Assembly (NCBI GenBank): GCA_050012255.1
Contig: JBEKHN010000029.1
Span: 1 to 15,902, forward strand
From: Candidatus Bathyarchaeia archaeon
GTDB lineage: Archaea > Thermoproteota > Bathyarchaeia > Bathyarchaeales > Bathycorpusculaceae
DNA: 15,902 nucleotides
Direction of reading: 5' to 3'
The first letter of the stretch is position 1. Every line of letters begins with the position of its first letter. Of this stretch, positions 1 through 6,855 are shown in pieces. A model generated the notes under the pieces. It searched no databases and was not told the DNA's origin. It saw nothing but the letters and a program-made list of their open reading frames with translations. Position numbers and translations under genes: made by a program.

Positions 1-74
1 TTACCATCCCATATTGTTGGTTTCTCTAAGGTTAGCACACGTTTCATTCGATTTTTCGCCTTGGACGATATCAT
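1..74 (-). CDS. 5' end of an unknown protein running off the window (MISSKAKNRMKRVLTLEKPTIWDG...)
   Basis: Minus-strand ATG at 74, preceded by GGGAGG-aaac (SD) and a TTTAAC box at 105..100. The frame stays open to the window edge. Confidence 0.6.
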   Translation of the reverse strand, partial: MISSKAKNRMKRVLTLEKPTIWDG

Positions 75-161
75 GTTTCCTCCCGTTCCTTCAGTCCTGG
101 TTAAACCATTTACACAGCGCGCGCGTAGTGATTGGATAAGACCAATGAGCACTTTATAGAC

Positions 162-710
162 TCAAGAACGAATTTCTCTATCTTCTGTTGATCGCCTTTG
201 ACAGTAAGATCTGAATAAACTGTATCTCTGCAGGCGTGGCCAGCCAGTCTTTGCATAAATTAGTTTTTCTGGATTTTTCCTCAGCCAGTTCATCATATGG
301 AAGAAGCTCTTTGCCTTTTTCTCGTCTCTTTCTTTTACTGGCTCATAACCCAAGTTTCTGATTTCGTCAAGGTATGCTATCTCCGTCAGCCTCTGCGGCT
401 CCCCGGTGACTGTGATTCTGTCGACTTGACTGCCGCCATACATCTCTCTTAAATGATCTACCGCTTCGTCGAAGATGTAGCCTCTGCAGATTTGAATTTG
501 TTCGTCTTTCTTGATTTGGAGTTTGCTCAGCAGTTGAAACACGACTGTCGAAGCCTGCTTCAGATACTCTTTTGATCGGAATCGCGGATATCTGAAGTAT
601 TTAACATCCAAGATATCGTATCTGAATTCCTGAGTCTCGCAGCGAAAGGCTCCTATGACCACGCCAAAAAGTAGGTCGCCTATGCCTGCATCGTCAACAA
701 TTATTGTCAG
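162..710 (-). CDS. Uncharacterised RNase H/HII-like fold protein (~182 aa), probable CTG start
   Basis: The 162..662 ORF stays open up to CTG at 710, directly after an in-frame TAG. The extension adds TIIVDDAGIGDLLFG, which resembles the RNase HII first-strand motif (xGxDEAGRG). CRGY and KTGW motifs lie downstream. Confidence 0.7.
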   Translation of the reverse strand: MTIIVDDAGIGDLLFGVVIGAFRCETQEFRYDILDVKYFRYPRFRSKEYLKQASTVVFQLLSKLQIKKDEQIQICRGYIFDEAVDHLREMYGGSQVDRITVTGEPQRLTEIAYLDEIRNLGYEPVKERDEKKAKSFFHMMNWLRKNPEKLIYAKTGWPRLQRYSLFRSYCQRRSTEDREIRS

Positions 711-969
711 CTAACCCCATCCCCTTGTGTAAGAGATAAATGAACCATACGCACATCTGTGAAAACGCCTCATATGTGCCTTATATTGTTTGTTTCTCGG
801 ATTTCTTGTCCCTCATGCACACGTGATATATTATTCTCCCAAAAAAGATCGAAGATTGTCCAAATCATGAAAGCCTGATGGGGTGGCTTAGGTCAAAGCC
901 CACGTTTGAACTGTGAGTTTCATGTCCATTGTTTTCCGTAGTTGCCTGCTATATCAAAGCGTCGTAGAT

Positions 970-998
970 GCGCGCGCAATCTGCACTAAAGTTAATAT
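970..998 (+). promoter_or_regulatory. GCGCGCGC box plus BRE/TATA-like element (ctaaaGTTAATAT) for the AT-hook gene
   Basis: Palindrome TGCGCGCGCA at 969-978, then GTTAATAT at 991-998 just upstream of the predicted leader hairpin. Confidence 0.5.
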
Positions 999-1012
999 TC
1001 TTAGCCTCCCCA

Positions 1013-1094
1013 TTGTCGATTTGGCCAAAGTGCTAACTATTGCTCTCTTGGACAAGTAGACTTCGGTATCGGTGGCACTCGGCTGAGTTGATGA
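1013..1094 (+). ncRNA. Putative structured 5' leader RNA (long stem with multibranch top) covering the start codon
   Basis: 1013-1026 pairs with 1081-1094 (14 contiguous pairs, 6 G.U). 1029-1035 pairs with 1073-1079. A C(UUCG)G tetraloop sits at 1061-1066. Confidence 0.45.
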
Positions 1095-1699
1095 CAATAA
1101 TTACTTCGAGAAATCGAGGCAGACCACGGAAGCATGGCTGGACAGAATTCGCGAATGTGGAGCATGATTCTTCACTTGAAGCTCAATACCTAAGATGGGC
1201 AAGTGTCAACAATCATGCACTAGCTAAATGTGCACATGATGGCTGCCCACAATGCGCAGGAAAAAGTTTCAGACTTAGGCATGACGTGAAATTCAACAAC
1301 ATACGGTTCTATTGCCCAAACTGCCGTTTTGAAACGTCATTTCACATAATAAACCCAAAACAAAGCCTTCGCTCAATTGAAGTCTACGATGAAAAAGGCA
1401 ATTTTGTTGGCACAAAGAACATTGACGATTACCATGAAAAAACTAGTCGAGAGAACGCTGACTCGCGAGTGATGATTTCTGAGCAAAAACTGGACTTGGG
1501 CGGCGAATGGTTCGACGGTGTCTCAGGCACCAATTCACAGTCTCGACACTTGACCCATGAGGAAGTACGGAAACGAATTGAGGACCGCAAGATGAAGAGA
1601 CTCATGGAAGCTAACGCTGATGAGATGGAAAGCATTGAACAAGATGAGCGGGGATCATTCTTCAAAGACGAGTTTCATGGAGACAATGTTACAGACTGA
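1091..1699 (+). CDS. Hypothetical protein with N-terminal AT-hook (RGRPRK), Zn ribbon (CPQC...CPNC) and charged/acidic C-terminus
   Basis: Long ORF. ATG 1091 is preferred over TTG 1040. RGRPRK is at nt 1115-1132, followed by two CxxC pairs. Confidence 0.8.
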   Translation: MTIITSRNRGRPRKHGWTEFANVEHDSSLEAQYLRWASVNNHALAKCAHDGCPQCAGKSFRLRHDVKFNNIRFYCPNCRFETSFHIINPKQSLRSIEVYDEKGNFVGTKNIDDYHEKTSRENADSRVMISEQKLDLGGEWFDGVSGTNSQSRHLTHEEVRKRIEDRKMKRLMEANADEMESIEQDERGSFFKDEFHGDNVTD

Positions 1700-1760
1700 T
1701 TTTCTGTAATATAGTATGAGGAAGAGCAGAAGCAACATTACTTTTCGAACATCAACAATT

Positions 1761-1791
1761 GCGCGCGCTTCTGTGCAGGCAAGATTTAACT
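1761..1791 (+). promoter_or_regulatory. GCGCGCGC box plus TATA-like TTTAAC for the small basic peptide gene
   Basis: GCGCGCGC at 1761-1768, TTTAACT at 1785-1791, ATGs at 1812 and 1830. Confidence 0.5.
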
Positions 1792-1829
1792 TCCAACTTT
1801 GACTATTCGAAATGGCGATTTTGTTGAGC

Positions 1830-1916
1830 ATGGGAAGTGCTAAGAAGAAACCGATGACAAAAAAGGAAAGGGAAGAGAGAAGAAAGAAGCACAAGGAGAA
1901 ACGCTTGAAGAAGTAG
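1830..1916 (+). CDS. Small Lys/Arg-rich peptide MGSAKKKPMTKKEREERRKKHKEKRLKK (28 aa; alternative start at 1812)
   Basis: Below the ORF-track cutoff. It has its own TATA-like box, SD-like GGCGAT at 1814-1819, a purine-rich coding strand and TAG at 1914-1916. Confidence 0.65.
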   Translation: MGSAKKKPMTKKEREERRKKHKEKRLKK

Positions 1917-1955
1917 TCTCAATCGTTGCGCATTATTCATTCTCAGCGAGCGCTG

Positions 1956-2129
1956 TTATTGAAGTTTTGCGCCACATTTTGGGCACTTAAGAGGATAGTT
2001 TTCTTTGCTTATCATTTTCACTCCGCAGCCGAAGCAGATGCAAATCTTGCATACTGGGCAATGGTAGTTTGCACCTTGAATGCGGTTGCCGCGCATGCTG
2101 CAAGGCTTGGTTAAGCAGTTATCAGACAT
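1956..2129 (-). CDS. Small Cys-rich zinc-finger protein (57 aa, 9 Cys, RING/C4C4-like spacing)
   Basis: ATG at 2129 follows GGGGGGAACAG (SD-like). Pattern C-x4-C...CPVC-x4-CFGC...CPKC. Confidence 0.8.
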   Translation of the reverse strand: MSDNCLTKPCSMRGNRIQGANYHCPVCKICICFGCGVKMISKENYPLKCPKCGAKLQ

Positions 2130-2246
2130 CTGTTCCCCCCCAGTGGAATGGAGATTTGCCACAATAAAGAACGCATGGTTTGAAGGTTAAAAGAAGTCTG
2201 GTCATGCAACATTCTTGAGAAATGGAGAGAGTGGAGTAGAAGTGAA

Positions 2247-2367
2247 CTACTTTCTAACTTGAATTAGCTCGTCTCTAACCGCCTCTGCCACGAACTCGGC
2301 TCAACTGAGGTATCCTAGAAAATCCTTATCAAGTATTTTGTAGCGCGCGGGGTTTGAGTGTGGTCAC
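2247..2367 (-). pseudogene. Degraded CopG/ribbon-helix-helix transcription factor
   Basis: The minus strand reads YKILDKDFLGYLS*AEFVAEAVRDELIQVRK*, matching the archaeal RHH helix-B signature GYxSxxEFVxEAVR. There is an in-frame TGA at 2303..2301, and the likely beta strand (VTTLKP) is in another frame. Confidence 0.6.
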
Positions 2368-2450
2368 CGGCGAGTATGGGACGGACGCAACCTCTTCAGG
2401 GAGAGAAAATGGAAAGTGCCCACCTAAACGGAAAATGTATCTGCCTAAGG

Positions 2451-2470
2451 CTTTATAAAGGGTATATAAG
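2451..2470 (+). promoter_or_regulatory. Tandem TATA boxes upstream of tbp
   Basis: Palindromic CTTTATAAAG at 2451-2460 and TATATAAG at 2463-2470. The ATG is at 2498. Confidence 0.7.
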
Positions 2471-2497
2471 CACTTCAGTAATAAGAAGTGGATTTCC

Positions 2498-3058
2498 ATG
2501 CCGAAGAGCACGGCCATAATAAAGATTGAGAACGTTGTTGCTTCTGCCACGCTGAACCAGAAGGTTGACTTGAACGCTATCGTCAAGAGTTATCCAGGCG
2601 TCGAGTACCGTCCAGAACAGTTCCCCGGCCTAGTGTATAGGCTCAAGAAGCCGAAGACGGCTACTCTGATCTTCAACTCTGGGAAAATGGTCTGCACAGG
2701 TGCAAAATCGGAACAGGAATCGCGCAGGGCAGTCATGAAAGTGATCAAAGAGTTGAAGAAGGGCGGAATAATCATCATCAGCAAGCCGGAGTTGAAGATT
2801 CAGAACATCGTTGCTTCCGGAATCCTCGGAGGAATGATAGACCTGGAGAAGGCTGCGTACACTCTTGGAAAGACGATGTACGAACCGGAACAGTTTCCAG
2901 GCCTGATATACAGGATGGACGAGCCCAAAGTTGTCATACTGTTGTTTGCAAGCGGGAAGCTTGTCTGCACTGGAGCGAAAAAAGAACAGGATGTTTACGA
3001 CGCTGTGCACAAGCTCCATGGGATATTGGAGGAGCAAACCCTAATTTTCTATGAATAG
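2498..3058 (+). CDS. tbp: TATA-box-binding protein
   Basis: Two TBP repeats: NVVAS...YRPEQFPGLVYR...LIFNSGKMVCTGAKS and NIVAS...YEPEQFPGLIYR...LLFASGKLVCTGAK. Confidence 0.99.
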   Translation: MPKSTAIIKIENVVASATLNQKVDLNAIVKSYPGVEYRPEQFPGLVYRLKKPKTATLIFNSGKMVCTGAKSEQESRRAVMKVIKELKKGGIIIISKPELKIQNIVASGILGGMIDLEKAAYTLGKTMYEPEQFPGLIYRMDEPKVVILLFASGKLVCTGAKKEQDVYDAVHKLHGILEEQTLIFYE

Positions 3059-3098
3059 ACTTCTTTCCTTCCATTCTGACCTATGTATCTGTCTTTCT

Positions 3099-3728
3099 CT
3101 ATCCTTTCTTGACCTGCTTCAAGATGGTCTTCAGCTGATCCTGATCAATCGTTCCTAGCTCGTGCAGGGTACTGACTATTTCAGTGATGTTGAGCAGCGC
3201 ATGAAGCTTCACGCCGGTCTTTGCAAGCTTTTCTCTTCCGCCTTCCTGCCTGTCTATGAGCACAACAGCGTCGGTCACCACGCCCCCTTCTGCCATTATG
3301 GCCCTTTCCGCCTTCTGTAAAGACAAGCCGGTTGTTACAAGGTCGTCCATCAACAGAACGCGGTTTCCAGGAGCAATTATTCCTTCTATCCTCCTCTCTC
3401 TTCCGTGAAAGCGCGCACCTTTTCGAACATACAGAAACGGTTTCTTCAAGTTGAAGGCAACTACTGATGCAAAGGGTATCCCCGCAACCGGTATCCCTGC
3501 TATCCTATCGACATTGCCCAATCCGATTTCGCTCCTTATGAACTCCACGAAGCAGTCGCAGATTTTCTCAAAGGCGTCAGGAAAGCTCGGGATGATTCTG
3601 AGATCTATGTAGTACGGACTCATCTTTCCGCTTGTGAGCTTGAAAGCGCCAAACTTCAAGGCCCCTATCCTATCCAGAACCTTGCTGATCTCAACCTTCA
3701 TGCCTTCGCTCTTTCTTTCAGTAGGCAA
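3099..3728 (-). CDS. pyrE: Orotate phosphoribosyltransferase
   Basis: GAFKLTSGKMSPYYIDLR, YVRK loop and PRPP-binding motif VLLMDDLVTTGLS. TTG start after GGTGTGA; alternative ATG at 3701. Confidence 0.96.
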   Translation of the reverse strand: MPTERKSEGMKVEISKVLDRIGALKFGAFKLTSGKMSPYYIDLRIIPSFPDAFEKICDCFVEFIRSEIGLGNVDRIAGIPVAGIPFASVVAFNLKKPFLYVRKGARFHGRERRIEGIIAPGNRVLLMDDLVTTGLSLQKAERAIMAEGGVVTDAVVLIDRQEGGREKLAKTGVKLHALLNITEIVSTLHELGTIDQDQLKTILKQVKKG

Positions 3729-4604: not shown

Positions 4605-5888
4605 ATGGTTGACGCTTGGCTGCCTTATGGAAAATCGATGGTCTGCGTGAGGATTCCAGCACAGAACTTTTTAGGTTCAATAGAACCGAGAGAGAAACCG
4701 GGCGTATCAGACACTCGAGCTGAGGTTGAAGGGGCCCTGAAACAGCCTATTGGTTCGAAGAGGCTCGTTGAAATCGCTAAACCCGAAAGCCGGGTGGCAA
4801 TAGTTGTAGATGATGTGACTAGGCCGGCTCCAAGTTACCTCATGGTTCCACCGATACTTGATGAGCTGGACGCTGCGGGAGTGAAGCCCGAGAATGTGAC
4901 GGTTGTTTTTGCCTGCGGGTCCCACAGGCCTGTTACGCGTGAGGAAGCGCTCGGGCTTTTAGGTGAAGCTGTTCTCAACCGTGTGAAGACGGTGAGTCAC
5001 GACTGTAAGGCTCAAGACTTGGTTCACGTGGGAACAACTCATAAGCACGGAACAAAGGTGTACTTGAACCGGACTTTCGCGGAGGCAGATGTCAGAATCT
5101 TGACAGGAGACGTGTGTCTCCATTACTTTGCTGGCTACGGCGGTGGGAGAAAAAGCATCCTGCCGGGACTTTCGGGTGAGGAAACGATAAAGCACAATCA
5201 TGCCATGCTCTTGGACGCCCATGCGAAAACCGGCGTACTCAATGAAAACCCAGTCAGCGAGGACATGGCGGAGGCTGCAAAAATGGTCAGAGTCGATTTT
5301 GCGTTGAACGCTGTCATCAACAGCAAGCACGAGCTTGTCAAGGCTTTTTCAGGAGACCTCGATCAAGTGTTTTCCGAGGGTGTTAAGCTTGTCGACGAGA
5401 TGTACCGTGTGCAGGTGGAGCGCCGCGCAGACGTCGTTGTCGTCAGCCCTGGGGGGAATCCTGCAGACCTGAACCTCTTCCAAGCCTACAAGGCGGTGGA
5501 CAACGCTTTGGAAGCTGTTAAGCGTGGCGGCGTCATCGTTTTGGTCGCTGAACTTCCAGAAGGTCATGGAAACCAGGATTTCTACGATTGGATGGTTAAG
5601 TTCAAGGATTTGAAAGCCATGGAGAGCGAAGTCAAGCGCAACTTTGTCATGGGCGGAGCCAAGGCCTACTACTACACGAAGGCTTTGCAGAAGGCTCAGA
5701 TAATTCTCGTTTCCTCAATGCCAGACTATTATGCTGCGACGGTTTTCAAACTGAAGACCGCAAGGGCCGTAAACGATGCCCTCAATCAAGCCTTGACGAT
5801 CGCTGGGAAGAATGCCAAGGTCTGGACCATGCCCTATGGAAATTACACGTTGCCAGAGGTCAGAGCGGTCGCCGAAGAGGGCCATTAG
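4605..5888 (+). CDS. larA: Nickel-pincer-dependent lactate racemase (LarA) family protein
   Basis: DDVTRP, GSHR, HYFAGYGGGRKSILPG, HNH and DLNLFQAYKA motifs of LarA. Promoter-like CTTAATA lies near 4560. Confidence 0.93.
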   Translation: MVDAWLPYGKSMVCVRIPAQNFLGSIEPREKPGVSDTRAEVEGALKQPIGSKRLVEIAKPESRVAIVVDDVTRPAPSYLMVPPILDELDAAGVKPENVTVVFACGSHRPVTREEALGLLGEAVLNRVKTVSHDCKAQDLVHVGTTHKHGTKVYLNRTFAEADVRILTGDVCLHYFAGYGGGRKSILPGLSGEETIKHNHAMLLDAHAKTGVLNENPVSEDMAEAAKMVRVDFALNAVINSKHELVKAFSGDLDQVFSEGVKLVDEMYRVQVERRADVVVVSPGGNPADLNLFQAYKAVDNALEAVKRGGVIVLVAELPEGHGNQDFYDWMVKFKDLKAMESEVKRNFVMGGAKAYYYTKALQKAQIILVSSMPDYYAATVFKLKTARAVNDALNQALTIAGKNAKVWTMPYGNYTLPEVRAVAEEGH

Positions 5889-5889
5889 A

Positions 5890-6855
5890 ATGAGATTGTT
5901 GAAACCGCCAAGGCTTAATCGCGGCGACACCTTTGGCGTAGTTGCTCCTTCTTATCCTGTTGCTCCCTTTCAGAAGCTCTACGATCAGGGAATCAGAAAT
6001 CTGAAAAGCTTTGGCTTCAAAGTGAAGGAAGGCAAGACTGTGAAGCTTGAGCACATGGGTTACATGGCGGGAACAGACGCTCAGAGAGCCGAGGACATCA
6101 ACAAGATGTTTGCGGACAAAGAGGTCAAAGCCATCGTCTGTGCCATAGGAGGACAGGTTGCGATTCGAACTCTACGCTATCTGGATTTCGATTTGATAAA
6201 GGCCAACCCTAAGATTTTCTCAGGCATGAGCGACATCACAACCTTTCACGTTGCCTTTCTTGCAAAGACGGGTCTCAGCGGCCTTCACCAGTCAGATGTC
6301 ATTTTTGGCTTCGGAGCAGACCTGAAAAGCTTGGAAGCCAGTTACGAAATGGGGCTTTTTATGAAAATCACCGAAAACGCGGAGCCTCTGGGACTGCTAC
6401 CCAAGTTCACGCCGTGGGAAGTTTGGCGCGAAGGCAAGGCTGAAGCTAGGCTTTTCGGCGGAAACATCCCGTCATTGCAAACGTTGCTTTCAACTCCTTA
6501 CTTCCCAAAAATCGATCAGCCGGTTATCCTCTTCTGGGAATGCACGGCGAAGCCGCTTGAAAAGATAGACCAGGACCTGACTCAGTTCAGGGAAGCTGGC
6601 TTGTTTGAAAAGACGAGCGGCATGCTCATCGGCAAGATCAGGGGCGAGGAGCCCAACCAGCCTGGCACGATAAGGGACATGACCGAAGAAGTCAAGAAAG
6701 TGATCCTGGACATAGCTGAAGAATTTGATTTTCCCATCATCGCAAGCATGGATTTCGGTCACTACACGGCTAACCTGCCGTTGCCGTTTGGGCTCAAGGT
6801 GAGCATGAACACGGAAGGGGCAAGAGTCCGGATAAACGAGTCCTACGTGAACTAG
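5890..6855 (+). CDS. S66 family peptidase (LD-carboxypeptidase/MccF-like)
   Basis: KPPRL..GDT.GVVAPS, RAEDIN.MF.D, GMSDIT (Ser), LFWE (Glu) and DFGH (His). The real start is ATG 5890, 1 nt after the larA stop. Confidence 0.93.
   Translation: MRLLKPPRLNRGDTFGVVAPSYPVAPFQKLYDQGIRNLKSFGFKVKEGKTVKLEHMGYMAGTDAQRAEDINKMFADKEVKAIVCAIGGQVAIRTLRYLDFDLIKANPKIFSGMSDITTFHVAFLAKTGLSGLHQSDVIFGFGADLKSLEASYEMGLFMKITENAEPLGLLPKFTPWEVWREGKAEARLFGGNIPSLQTLLSTPYFPKIDQPVILFWECTAKPLEKIDQDLTQFREAGLFEKTSGMLIGKIRGEEPNQPGTIRDMTEEVKKVILDIAEEFDFPIIASMDFGHYTANLPLPFGLKVSMNTEGARVRINESYVN

Follow-up and report, generated by a model that had tools for sequence, protein, structure and literature searches.

What holds together the small genes at one end of an archaeal contig, and why do they seem to share a word in their promoters? 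The window, meaning the whole stretch of DNA that was analysed, is the complete contig C29 (15,902 bp) of G000, a 2.35-Mb genome in 38 contigs that the database names of its close protein relatives place in Bathyarchaeia; positions 1-2400 thus sit at a contig end. Between a yhbY gene and the tbp gene this region carries four small genes, A, B, C and D, a gene fragment, E, and several copies of the alternating G/C word GCGCGCGC. The original prediction had read it as a co-regulated chromatin, transcription or dormancy-type module whose promoters share a motif, or as the decayed remnant of a mobile element. Our analysis indicates that 1-2400 is probably a gene-turnover spot between yhbY and tbp, a patchwork and not a module, and that GCGCGCGC is probably a palindrome of DNA junctions, with the form A(GC)4-5T, which is spread over the whole genome and restricted to a lineage. 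A literature search for this motif in archaea or Bathyarchaeia found no description of it.

The shared word and the regulon reading

The 15.9-kb window holds three exact copies of GCGCGCGC, all of them in 1-2400 (117-124, 970-977 and 1761-1768), and 12 overlapping matches to GCGCGC, against 4.66 +/- 2.44 in shuffled sequence, where 3 of 200 shuffles reach 12. The excess extends over the whole genome: GCGCGCGC occurs in 434 overlapping copies, forming 368 runs, where a first-order Markov model expects ~27, which is a ~16-fold over-representation. By our own gene calls the five commonest intergenic 8-mers are all derived from the motif, with GCGCGCGC at the top, and 290 of the 368 runs (79%) are intergenic while intergenic DNA makes up 17.7% of the genome, counts that are approximate because the gene caller is crude. 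The intergenic runs are confined in length, with 162 of 8 nucleotides (nt), 99 of 9, 48 of 10 and a single one of 11. Over all runs, A precedes in 63% of cases and T follows in 57%, with no other flank preference; T stands at -2 in 34% and A at +2 in 38%. In 5-kb windows dense in the motif, GC content and coding density are reduced and repeats are more numerous, a profile shared by 1-2400, and many of these windows are found at the ends of contigs. The motif is restricted by lineage, since AGCGCGCGCT is counted 7-114 times in all 11 genomes of the genus, against 0-4 for a control word, and among 50 genomes outside the genus it reaches 63 in G027, 53 in G034 and 23 in G055, with 0-1 in 38.

If A to E formed a co-regulated chromatin, transcription or dormancy module, GCGCGCGC would be the binding site of a common regulator in their promoters. 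The window offers several points in favour of this. Three exact copies and one 7-mer fall within 2.4 kb and precede genes by 43 nt (the ATG of yhbY), 114 nt (B), 44 nt (C) and 149 nt (tbp); the runs at 970 and 1761 are conserved in G001, the closed genome of a congener, and in G010; all the products look like nucleic-acid binders; and the adjacency of A and B recurs in G001, G010 and G008. The conservation carries little weight either way in the spacer of B, since G001 and G010 are 93% identical across it. On the other side, GCGCGCGC as a candidate archaeal promoter or regulator site showed no fixed distance to the TATA box or the start codon and no enrichment limited to upstream regions. Runs occur in spacers of every type, 65 of them in convergent ones, and their density is flat at ~0.5-1 per kb of spacer, dropping to 0.2-0.5 per kb over the last 50 nt upstream of a start codon. 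Related promoters lack the motif as well: it is absent upstream of both full-length paralogues of gene C and from the orthologous B promoter of G008, though the TATA box there is conserved, and no (GC)3 or longer run lies within 260 nt upstream of tbp in G010 and G009. The word shared by the promoters is the commonest between-gene word of the genome, and a regulon is not supported by it.

The linkage of the genes was surveyed in 20 fetched loci with a gene A orthologue, some of them shortened by contig ends. Gene B lies near A in four loci (G001, G010, G008 and G003), arranged in G008 tail-to-tail rather than head-to-head and represented in G003 by a B-like copy, 50% identical, 2.3 kb from A. 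Gene C is near A in one locus (G001) and gene D in none, while tbp falls within the fetched stretch in four. None of the 12 A loci outside the genus has B, C or D nearby. In G001 the order is yhbY-C-B-A amid housekeeping genes, with tbp not within ~9 kb, and the content between B and tbp differs from genome to genome: C, D and E in the window, a yhbY copy and a zinc-ribbon membrane protein in G010, and other DNA in G009. The linkage of A to E is limited to the genus and varies, so that synteny in related Bathyarchaeia, which had been put forward as a check on the module, is weak. With the motif spread over the whole genome and the genes so loosely linked, neither the shared promoter motif nor the co-regulated module is upheld, and we regard common regulation of A to E as hardly probable at all.

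GC runs at the ends of homology blocks

The four runs in 1-2400 all lie within ~20 nt of the end of a homology block. Run 1 (117-125, GCGCGCGCG, with A before and T after it) is placed between a yhbY block and an A block. The yhbY block (1-114), made up of the 5' end of the gene and its 5' untranslated region (UTR), is repeated at C28:772-885 with 98% identity, and its homology stops 3 nt before the run; the homology of the A block to G001 and G003 begins at 131. Run 2 (970-977, GCGCGCGC), upstream of the start codon of gene B, is kept in G001 and G010 and absent in the G008 orthologue, whose homology begins at 986. Run 3 (1761-1768, GCGCGCGC) lies 62 nt past the stop codon of B, ahead of the start codon of C, near the ends of a repeat shared with C14 (1774) and of the homology to G010 (1779). 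Run 4 (2343-2349, GCGCGCG, 7 nt) adjoins the truncated end of E (2339) at a distance of 4 nt and is found 95 nt upstream of the conserved tbp promoter block; homology begins at 2420 to G009 and at 2444 to G010. An imperfect fifth copy, GCGAGCGC (1946-1953), marks the left edge of a D block: G001 homology stops at 1943, and the copy of this block on C13, 86% identical, begins at 1950.

The same association is seen throughout the genome. Repeat ends in G000 accumulate at runs, 50 of them inside and 41 at 1-5 nt outside, against ~1-2 per nt at distances of 30-200 nt. A repeat end lies within 10 nt of 50 of the 290 intergenic runs, compared with 20.7 +/- 4.2 (maximum 34) in 200 draws of 290 random intergenic positions. 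When G000 was compared with 1.2 Mb of G001 (~92% identical, 59% alignable), 47 of 413 synteny-block ends in G001 and 38 of 404 in G000 were at most 10 nt from a run; among the 280 intergenic block ends of G000 this holds for 32, the expectation being 1.9% of intergenic positions. Simple indels between the two genomes carry a run of at least 8 nt at the junction of the short allele in 13 of 62 cases, while only six of their long alleles carry a run at a single end and none carries one at each end.

Direction of change at the junctions

Outgroups resolved the direction of three events as deletions. The segments retained in G000 are C8:12774-16064 (3291 bp, three open reading frames (ORFs)), C5:12605-13727 (1123 bp, one 292-aa ORF) and C23:1859-2917 (1059 bp, one 349-aa ORF); they have homologues in G003, G004, G007 or G009, and where they would stand G001 has nothing but CGCGCGCGC or GCGCGCG. 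No deletion boundary of the ancestral alleles shows more than 1-5 alternating G/C letters, and the run at these three deletions is new sequence. At the C8 locus G007 retains 105 nt more of the lost segment, followed by GCGCGCGC and then the same right boundary, and the counterpart in G001 has two (GC)n runs 23 nt apart with an ancestral remnant between them (G001:C1 ~681,500-681,560; L090 ~1500-1560). This one locus thus presents two nested deletion alleles with a common boundary at a run. Overall, the runs are associated with junctions, and at least some of them were newly written where a deletion took place.

One way to account for new sequence at the joint is a dedicated excision-rejoining process in these Bathyarchaeia that would write self-complementary (GC)4-5 filler, the scar then staying active for nested deletions and insertions. 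As one possibility, alternating G/C tails would be added to both broken ends, which would then pair. We put this forward tentatively and consider it unlikely in this specific form.

The palindrome could conversely be a functional DNA element under selection: a boundary or insulator, a highly iterated palindrome linked to methylation, a signal for uptake or recombination, or an element of Z-DNA or supercoiling. Its link to junctions would then be secondary, arising through fragility or microhomology. Alternating CG tracts can form Z-DNA and provoke deletions. Strong over-representation, tightly limited length and presence throughout the genus would suit such an element, as would the avoidance of the region from core promoter to start codon, and identical 8-10-mers would serve as microhomology for illegitimate recombination. 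Against an element of this kind stand the three resolved deletions, where the run was not present in the ancestral sequence. In addition, its spread is patchy among related genera, m5C (5-methylcytosine) methyltransferases do not track the motif, and the position of the runs is not conserved in more distant orthologous spacers. On balance a selected element seems quite unlikely.

Transposable elements with GCGCGC ends and candidate enzymes

G000 contains a family resembling miniature transposable elements that carry inverted repeats (MITEs), 138-183 bp in length, of which no fewer than 25-26 paired copies exist; the ends are inverted and the flanks mostly TA. Its members have the form TA-GCGCGC-ATGCTT-GTTCCTAAATTC...GAATTTAGGAAC-ACGCTA-GCGCGC-TA, for example at C4:16954-17130 and C11:19027-19209, so that the GTTCCTAAATTC family combines the small size, terminal inverted repeats, many copies and short target duplication by which MITEs are recognised. 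Since these elements have GCGCGC ends and are mostly flanked by TA, a transposon origin of the runs, as footprints or as targets, is possible. The runs would then be the target sites, or the footprints left by excision, of a cut-and-paste transposon or MITE that targets TA and has GCGCGC ends, and joint use of the ends of two adjacent copies would give rise to deletions.

Such an origin has attractive features. The consensus TAGCGCGCGCTA is precisely what TA + GCGC + GCGC + TA would give, the sharp stop at 10 nt is compatible with a fixed staggered cut, and the patchy, lineage-restricted spread fits the history of a mobile element. Besides the paired copies with GCGCGC ends there is a polymorphic site with a MITE in G001 and the 8-nt GCGCACGC in G000; only two orthologous MITE sites were recovered, the other having a MITE in both genomes, so the informative comparisons number just two. 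A MITE end adjoins only 10 of the 368 runs, however, TA flanks are present in about one third of runs, and at the deletion scars that were resolved TA is missing from one side or from both. The 11 genus genomes gave no IS630-type transposase, and DDE_Tnp_1 does not track the motif. We therefore treat a footprint or target origin as possible yet rather doubtful.

An autonomous transposase partner for the GTTCCTAAATTC family was not found; a 3.1-kb candidate autonomous element on C34 was discarded, as it holds an M29 peptidase and other ordinary ORFs. Five protein families were profiled against motif density, and none of them tracks it. The IS630-type DDE_3 family (PF13358) is found in 0 of 11 genus genomes and ResT/TelK (PF16684) in 0 of 5 genomes; the m5C methyltransferase family (PF00145), present in 2 of 11 genus genomes, varies independently of the motif, as does DDE_Tnp_1 (PF01609). 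Ku (PF02735) is present in motif-poor genomes and was not found in the motif-rich G027, G034 and G055. A Ku homologue is encoded in G000 at C10:12429-12968 (PF02735, E 5.6e-41), and others occur in 7 of the 10 other genus genomes; in 14 named control genomes Ku is found in Bacillus subtilis only, and in none of the four archaea.

Genes A and B

Gene A (162-710, minus strand) encodes 182 aa and belongs to a Bathyarchaeia family without a Pfam model, having no match in Pfam, NCBIfam or PHROG. It has 1694 relatives in a large protein collection, is present in 28 of 61 related genomes and is kept throughout the order, in many different contexts, with 60-96% identity. The AlphaFold2 (AF2) model has a pLDDT of 91.9. 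Foldseek returned RNase HII as the top PDB match (1eke, E 7.6e-4, probability 1.00, TMq 0.53), with a further RNase HII match (3p83, TMq 0.48), and the next structural matches were retroviral integrase cores and eRF1/Pelota domains; this order of matches points to an RNase H-like fold, and the RNase H-like protein that had been recognised from the sequence is confirmed in this sense.

The relation to true RNase HII is a distant one. PF01351 (RNase HII) gave no match on gene A even at E <= 1, and a gene A profile search of PDB sequences gave 0 matches at E <= 10. The canonical RNase HII of G000 is a separate gene (C23:4983-5585) with the N-terminal sequence VDDAGRG, where gene A has IVDDAGIG. 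A profile-profile alignment of the two with hhalign covers the N-terminal VDDAG block only (66 columns, probability 39%), in which the invariant D6 and D7 of gene A align to the DD of VDDAG; C75 is also invariant in the gene A alignment. Gene A therefore resembles RNase HII in its predicted fold, its best structural match and this shared block, and differs from it in the lack of a hidden Markov model match, in the short profile alignment and in the added C-terminal CxxC zinc ribbon of some orthologues. It is probably a divergent RNase HII-like nucleic-acid enzyme. The orthologues concerned come from other genera (L030, L032, L038, L039 and L040) and have a C-terminal extension of ~40 aa, CxxC...CEVPFKPD..RPVYCxxC, a zinc ribbon that is missing from gene A of the window. 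Many relatives also carry a second paralogous family (ILIDDAGWGDL...), ~30% identical to gene A, for example at G029:C10:62636-63175; it was not found in G000.

The start codon of gene A is CTG in the seven closest sequences, that of the window included (708-710), and TTG in G010, while 13 more distant orthologues start with ATG (9), TTG (2) or GTG (2). A stop codon directly precedes the CTG in six of the seven, and the next canonical start would remove the invariant DDAG motif. Because the start is CTG, the gene is routinely mis-called 16 codons short in databases, where many entries have 166 aa and are called from an internal GTG without the DDAG motif.

Gene B (1091-1699, plus strand, 202 aa) carries the AT-hook RGRPRK in its N-terminal part, a zinc ribbon of the type CxxC...CxxC, the conserved segment DLGGEWFDGVSGT and, at the C-terminus, a long helix; DLGGEWFDG is invariant in the alignment. 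The AT-hook/Zn-ribbon protein recognised earlier is thus real and conserved, with 218 relatives, all of Bathyarchaeia type and 62-97% identical, although the Pfam matches are all sub-threshold (Cys_rich_KTR at 22.2 bits for a cut-off of 25.5; AT_hook at E 0.33). PHROG matches are faint (phrog_17149 at E 4e-5; a Lar-like family at E 0.02) and the AF2 model is poor (pLDDT 58). The structured leader ascribed to the gene gets no support from its folding energy: -27.9 kcal/mol corresponds to z = -1.27, and 23 of 200 shuffles fold equally well; of the 26 predicted pairs only 1 has a compensatory change. Both A and B are genes that Bathyarchaeia inherit stably and not the cargo of a recognisable mobile element.

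Dispersed repeats, genes C and D and fragment E

Two dispersed repeats flank gene B. A 33-nt repeat in the A-B spacer (879-912) has 94% identical copies at C1:389082-389114 and C5:6519-6551, both beside GC runs; a transfer RNA (tRNA) fragment or att site was considered for it and dropped, as aragorn gives no tRNA at the copies. Directly past the stop codon of B lies a 76-nt element (1699-1774) that contains run 3 and is 95% identical to C14:18762-18837; positions 1693-1734 are also 93% identical to C9:3916-3956, and the part after the stop codon is kept behind the B orthologues of G008 and G003. This element could be a 3' UTR, a terminator or a small-RNA module; an Rfam scan of 1-3200 at E <= 1 gave no match. 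Logan contigs over the window are fragmentary, none of the pieces listed extending across the region; their depth over 1701-1800 is far above that of its neighbours in all four Logan runs.

Gene C (1812-1916, plus strand) encodes a basic peptide of 34 aa (MAILLSMGSAKKKPMTKKEREERRKKHKEKRLKK). Full-length paralogues are found at C5:58772-58671 (85% aa identity) and C2:206776-206675 (76%), with a partial copy on C13, and the G001 orthologue is 97% identical. The protein has been kept at 76-85% while the DNA has drifted to 77-79% identity, which argues for a real coding gene. A 28-aa basic peptide had been predicted in this area, which is ambiguous: the gene at 1812-1916, which gives 28 aa if read from its second Met, has its two paralogues, and the 28-aa ORF at 1716-1802, which spans the GC motif and a repeat boundary, has no support.

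Gene D (1956-2162, minus strand) encodes a zinc-ribbon mini-protein of 68 aa, or 57 aa if the ATG at 2129 is the start, with paralogues on C13 (90% aa identity), C24 (58%) and C1 (76% over 33 aa, with a gap). It had been described as RING-like; the zinc mini-protein is genuine, but the similarities seen are to zinc ribbons only, all sub-threshold (a rubrerythrin-like domain and HVO_2753-type zinc fingers). B and D would be small zinc-ribbon nucleic-acid binders and C a small basic protein.

Fragment E (2246-2339, minus strand) is a 5'-truncated ribbon-helix-helix (RHH, CopG-like) pseudogene with an in-frame TGA. The intact 49-aa RHH gene lies at C8:31546-31695; E corresponds to its C-terminal two thirds, is 80% identical over 30 aa and has lost the N-terminal strand, and its DNA is 84% identical to C8:31545-31638. 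The dead RHH regulator of the original prediction is confirmed. The paralogues of C, D and E lie in motif-dense windows.

Composition and the single-element reading

Could the region be the decayed remnant of one integrated mobile element, a virus, plasmid or integrative element, that assembled A to E? Its composition gives some reason to ask. The GC content of 1-2400 is 0.4425, against a genome mean of 0.480 (standard deviation 0.028 in 2.4-kb windows), so the AT-richness noted by eye is real, though modest, at the 10th percentile. Codon usage of B is weakly host-like (the G001 orthologue of 219 aa scores 9.8, while tbp and pyrE of the window reach ~60), B has its faint PHROG matches, and a pseudogene fragment, multi-copy segments and a position at a contig end would all be at home in a decayed element. 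The mosaic with its truncated pseudogene and multi-copy segments is the part of the remnant claim that holds. An element, on the other hand, should bring an integrase or transposase with att sites or terminal repeats. No integrase, att/tRNA target or terminal repeat was found among the window ORFs scanned, in agreement with what had been noted from the sequence, and no integrase or transposase family among 17 G001 ORFs scanned in a 20-kb context, where the block lies amid housekeeping genes. Gene A is inherited vertically across the order, B has its 218 relatives, and every block has its own paralogues and junctions rather than one common pair of boundaries. By these scans the region does not qualify as an integrated mobile element, and its descent from a single one is very improbable.

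Comparison with known systems

HIP1 (GCGATCGC), the highly iterated palindrome of cyanobacteria, is described as abundant throughout genomes, where some have over one copy for each gene, and as linked to orphan methyltransferases recognising its inner sequence (PMC4390886, PMC5861425). GCGCGCGC is likewise a highly iterated palindrome, at 8 bp and strongly over-represented (434 against ~27), and the two have in common that they are perfect 8-bp palindromes, hugely over-represented, confined to one lineage and without an agreed function. They differ in that 79% of runs are intergenic here, that m5C methyltransferases occur in so few genomes of the genus, and that the run appears as new sequence at deletion junctions.

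Transposons of the Tc1/mariner/IS630 type are TA-targeting cut-and-paste elements that leave excision footprints. The likeness lies in the GCGCGC-ended MITE with TA flanks, in the consensus formed by TA + GCGC + GCGC + TA and in the lineage-restricted spread. The scars described here, in contrast, replace kilobases of unrelated genes and not an element, and most runs lack TA on both sides. MITEs are the subject of reviews (PMC10969869, PMC11602168).

Integron cassette arrays, and clusters of attC sites lacking integrases (CALINs), also consist of unrelated single genes parted by a recurring palindromic site, with a content that varies between relatives. The attC sites are imperfect palindromes of ~60-140 bp, and integron cassettes share one orientation. 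Here the site has 8-10 bp and the genes lie on both strands, and scans of the window and of ORFs from the 20-kb G001 context turned up no integrase; the region is neither an integron nor a CALIN cassette array. Repetitive extragenic palindromes (REPs) are mobilised by REP-associated tyrosine transposases (RAYTs). They are described as imperfect palindromes of 20-40 bp that fold as stem-loops (PMC3733652, PMC3184786). REPs and the bacterial interspersed mosaic elements (BIMEs) resemble the runs in being intergenic, palindromic, GC-rich, present in hundreds of copies per genome and associated with rearrangements. The motif here, by contrast, has 8-10 bp, lacks conserved flanks and is too short for a hairpin.

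Neighbouring genes

The 5' end of a yhbY/CRM-domain gene (1-74, minus strand), which runs off the contig start so that only its first 24 codons are in the window, had been overlooked in the original prediction; its full-length orthologues in G001 and G010 match PF01985 (E 7e-18 and 8e-18; 65 bits). On the other side tbp (PF00352, E 1.6e-63, 211 bits), which together with its conserved promoter block (TTTATAAAGGGTATATAA) spans 2444-3058 on the plus strand, is the stable neighbour of the variable region. It is followed by an orotate phosphoribosyltransferase-like gene, an MBL-fold hydrolase and further ordinary-looking genes; profile scans to the right of 2400 covered tbp, the phosphoribosyltransferase gene and the MBL gene, and the genes past the hydrolase carry names given from their sequences. 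Among them a LarA-like ORF (4605-5888) and an LD-carboxypeptidase-like ORF (5812-6855) overlap by 77 nt as listed. G010 matches just the first 42 residues of the latter and has RimI directly after, so either the LD-carboxypeptidase-like gene is variable too or its start lies further downstream.

Discussion

We hypothesize that the small genes A, B, C and D, each inherited independently, and the fragment E make up a patchwork between yhbY and tbp, in which the palindrome sits where blocks of DNA were deleted, inserted or exchanged. The four runs of the window would be scars of such events, each being at a block junction and one abutting a truncated gene, and a break-and-rejoin activity would have written or reused the palindrome. 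This activity might be related to a transposon, or it might be end-joining that adds self-complementary filler. The products of A, B, C and D presumably act independently of one another.

Several observations weigh against this gene-turnover reading. Most intergenic runs, 240 of 290, have no repeat end within 10 nt, and ~90% of synteny-block ends are not at a run. Direction was resolved for only three indels, with five further events lacking polarity, and position 989015 of G001 looks like a 3-kb repeat-rich insertion beside a pre-existing run. The four runs of the window coincide with junctions, and no outgroup shows the ancestral sequence that they replaced. Our own gene caller missed gene B and called a spurious ORF at 1655-1894. 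The runs at 970 and 1761 stand upstream of genes and are conserved in G001 and G010, and single runs may have a regulatory side role. Finally, no enzyme emerged from the five families profiled against motif density. Taken with the enrichment of repeat and synteny-block ends at runs and the three deletions at which the run is new, these points leave the gene-turnover reading probable.

For the study of this locus, the shared word is removed as a false lead: it is no sign of a regulon, and the cluster of genes does not form a functional module. In practice, the runs flag variable regions and likely assembly break points. If the filler reading were true, the hundreds of GCGCGCGC words would record gene loss and gain, and regions of the type of 1-2400 would be those that tolerate the process. 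If the gene-turnover reading is correct, the palindromes would be a record from which genome flux could be read in Bathyarchaeia, an uncultured group that is widespread, and would point to an undescribed DNA-joining or mobile-element activity in archaea.

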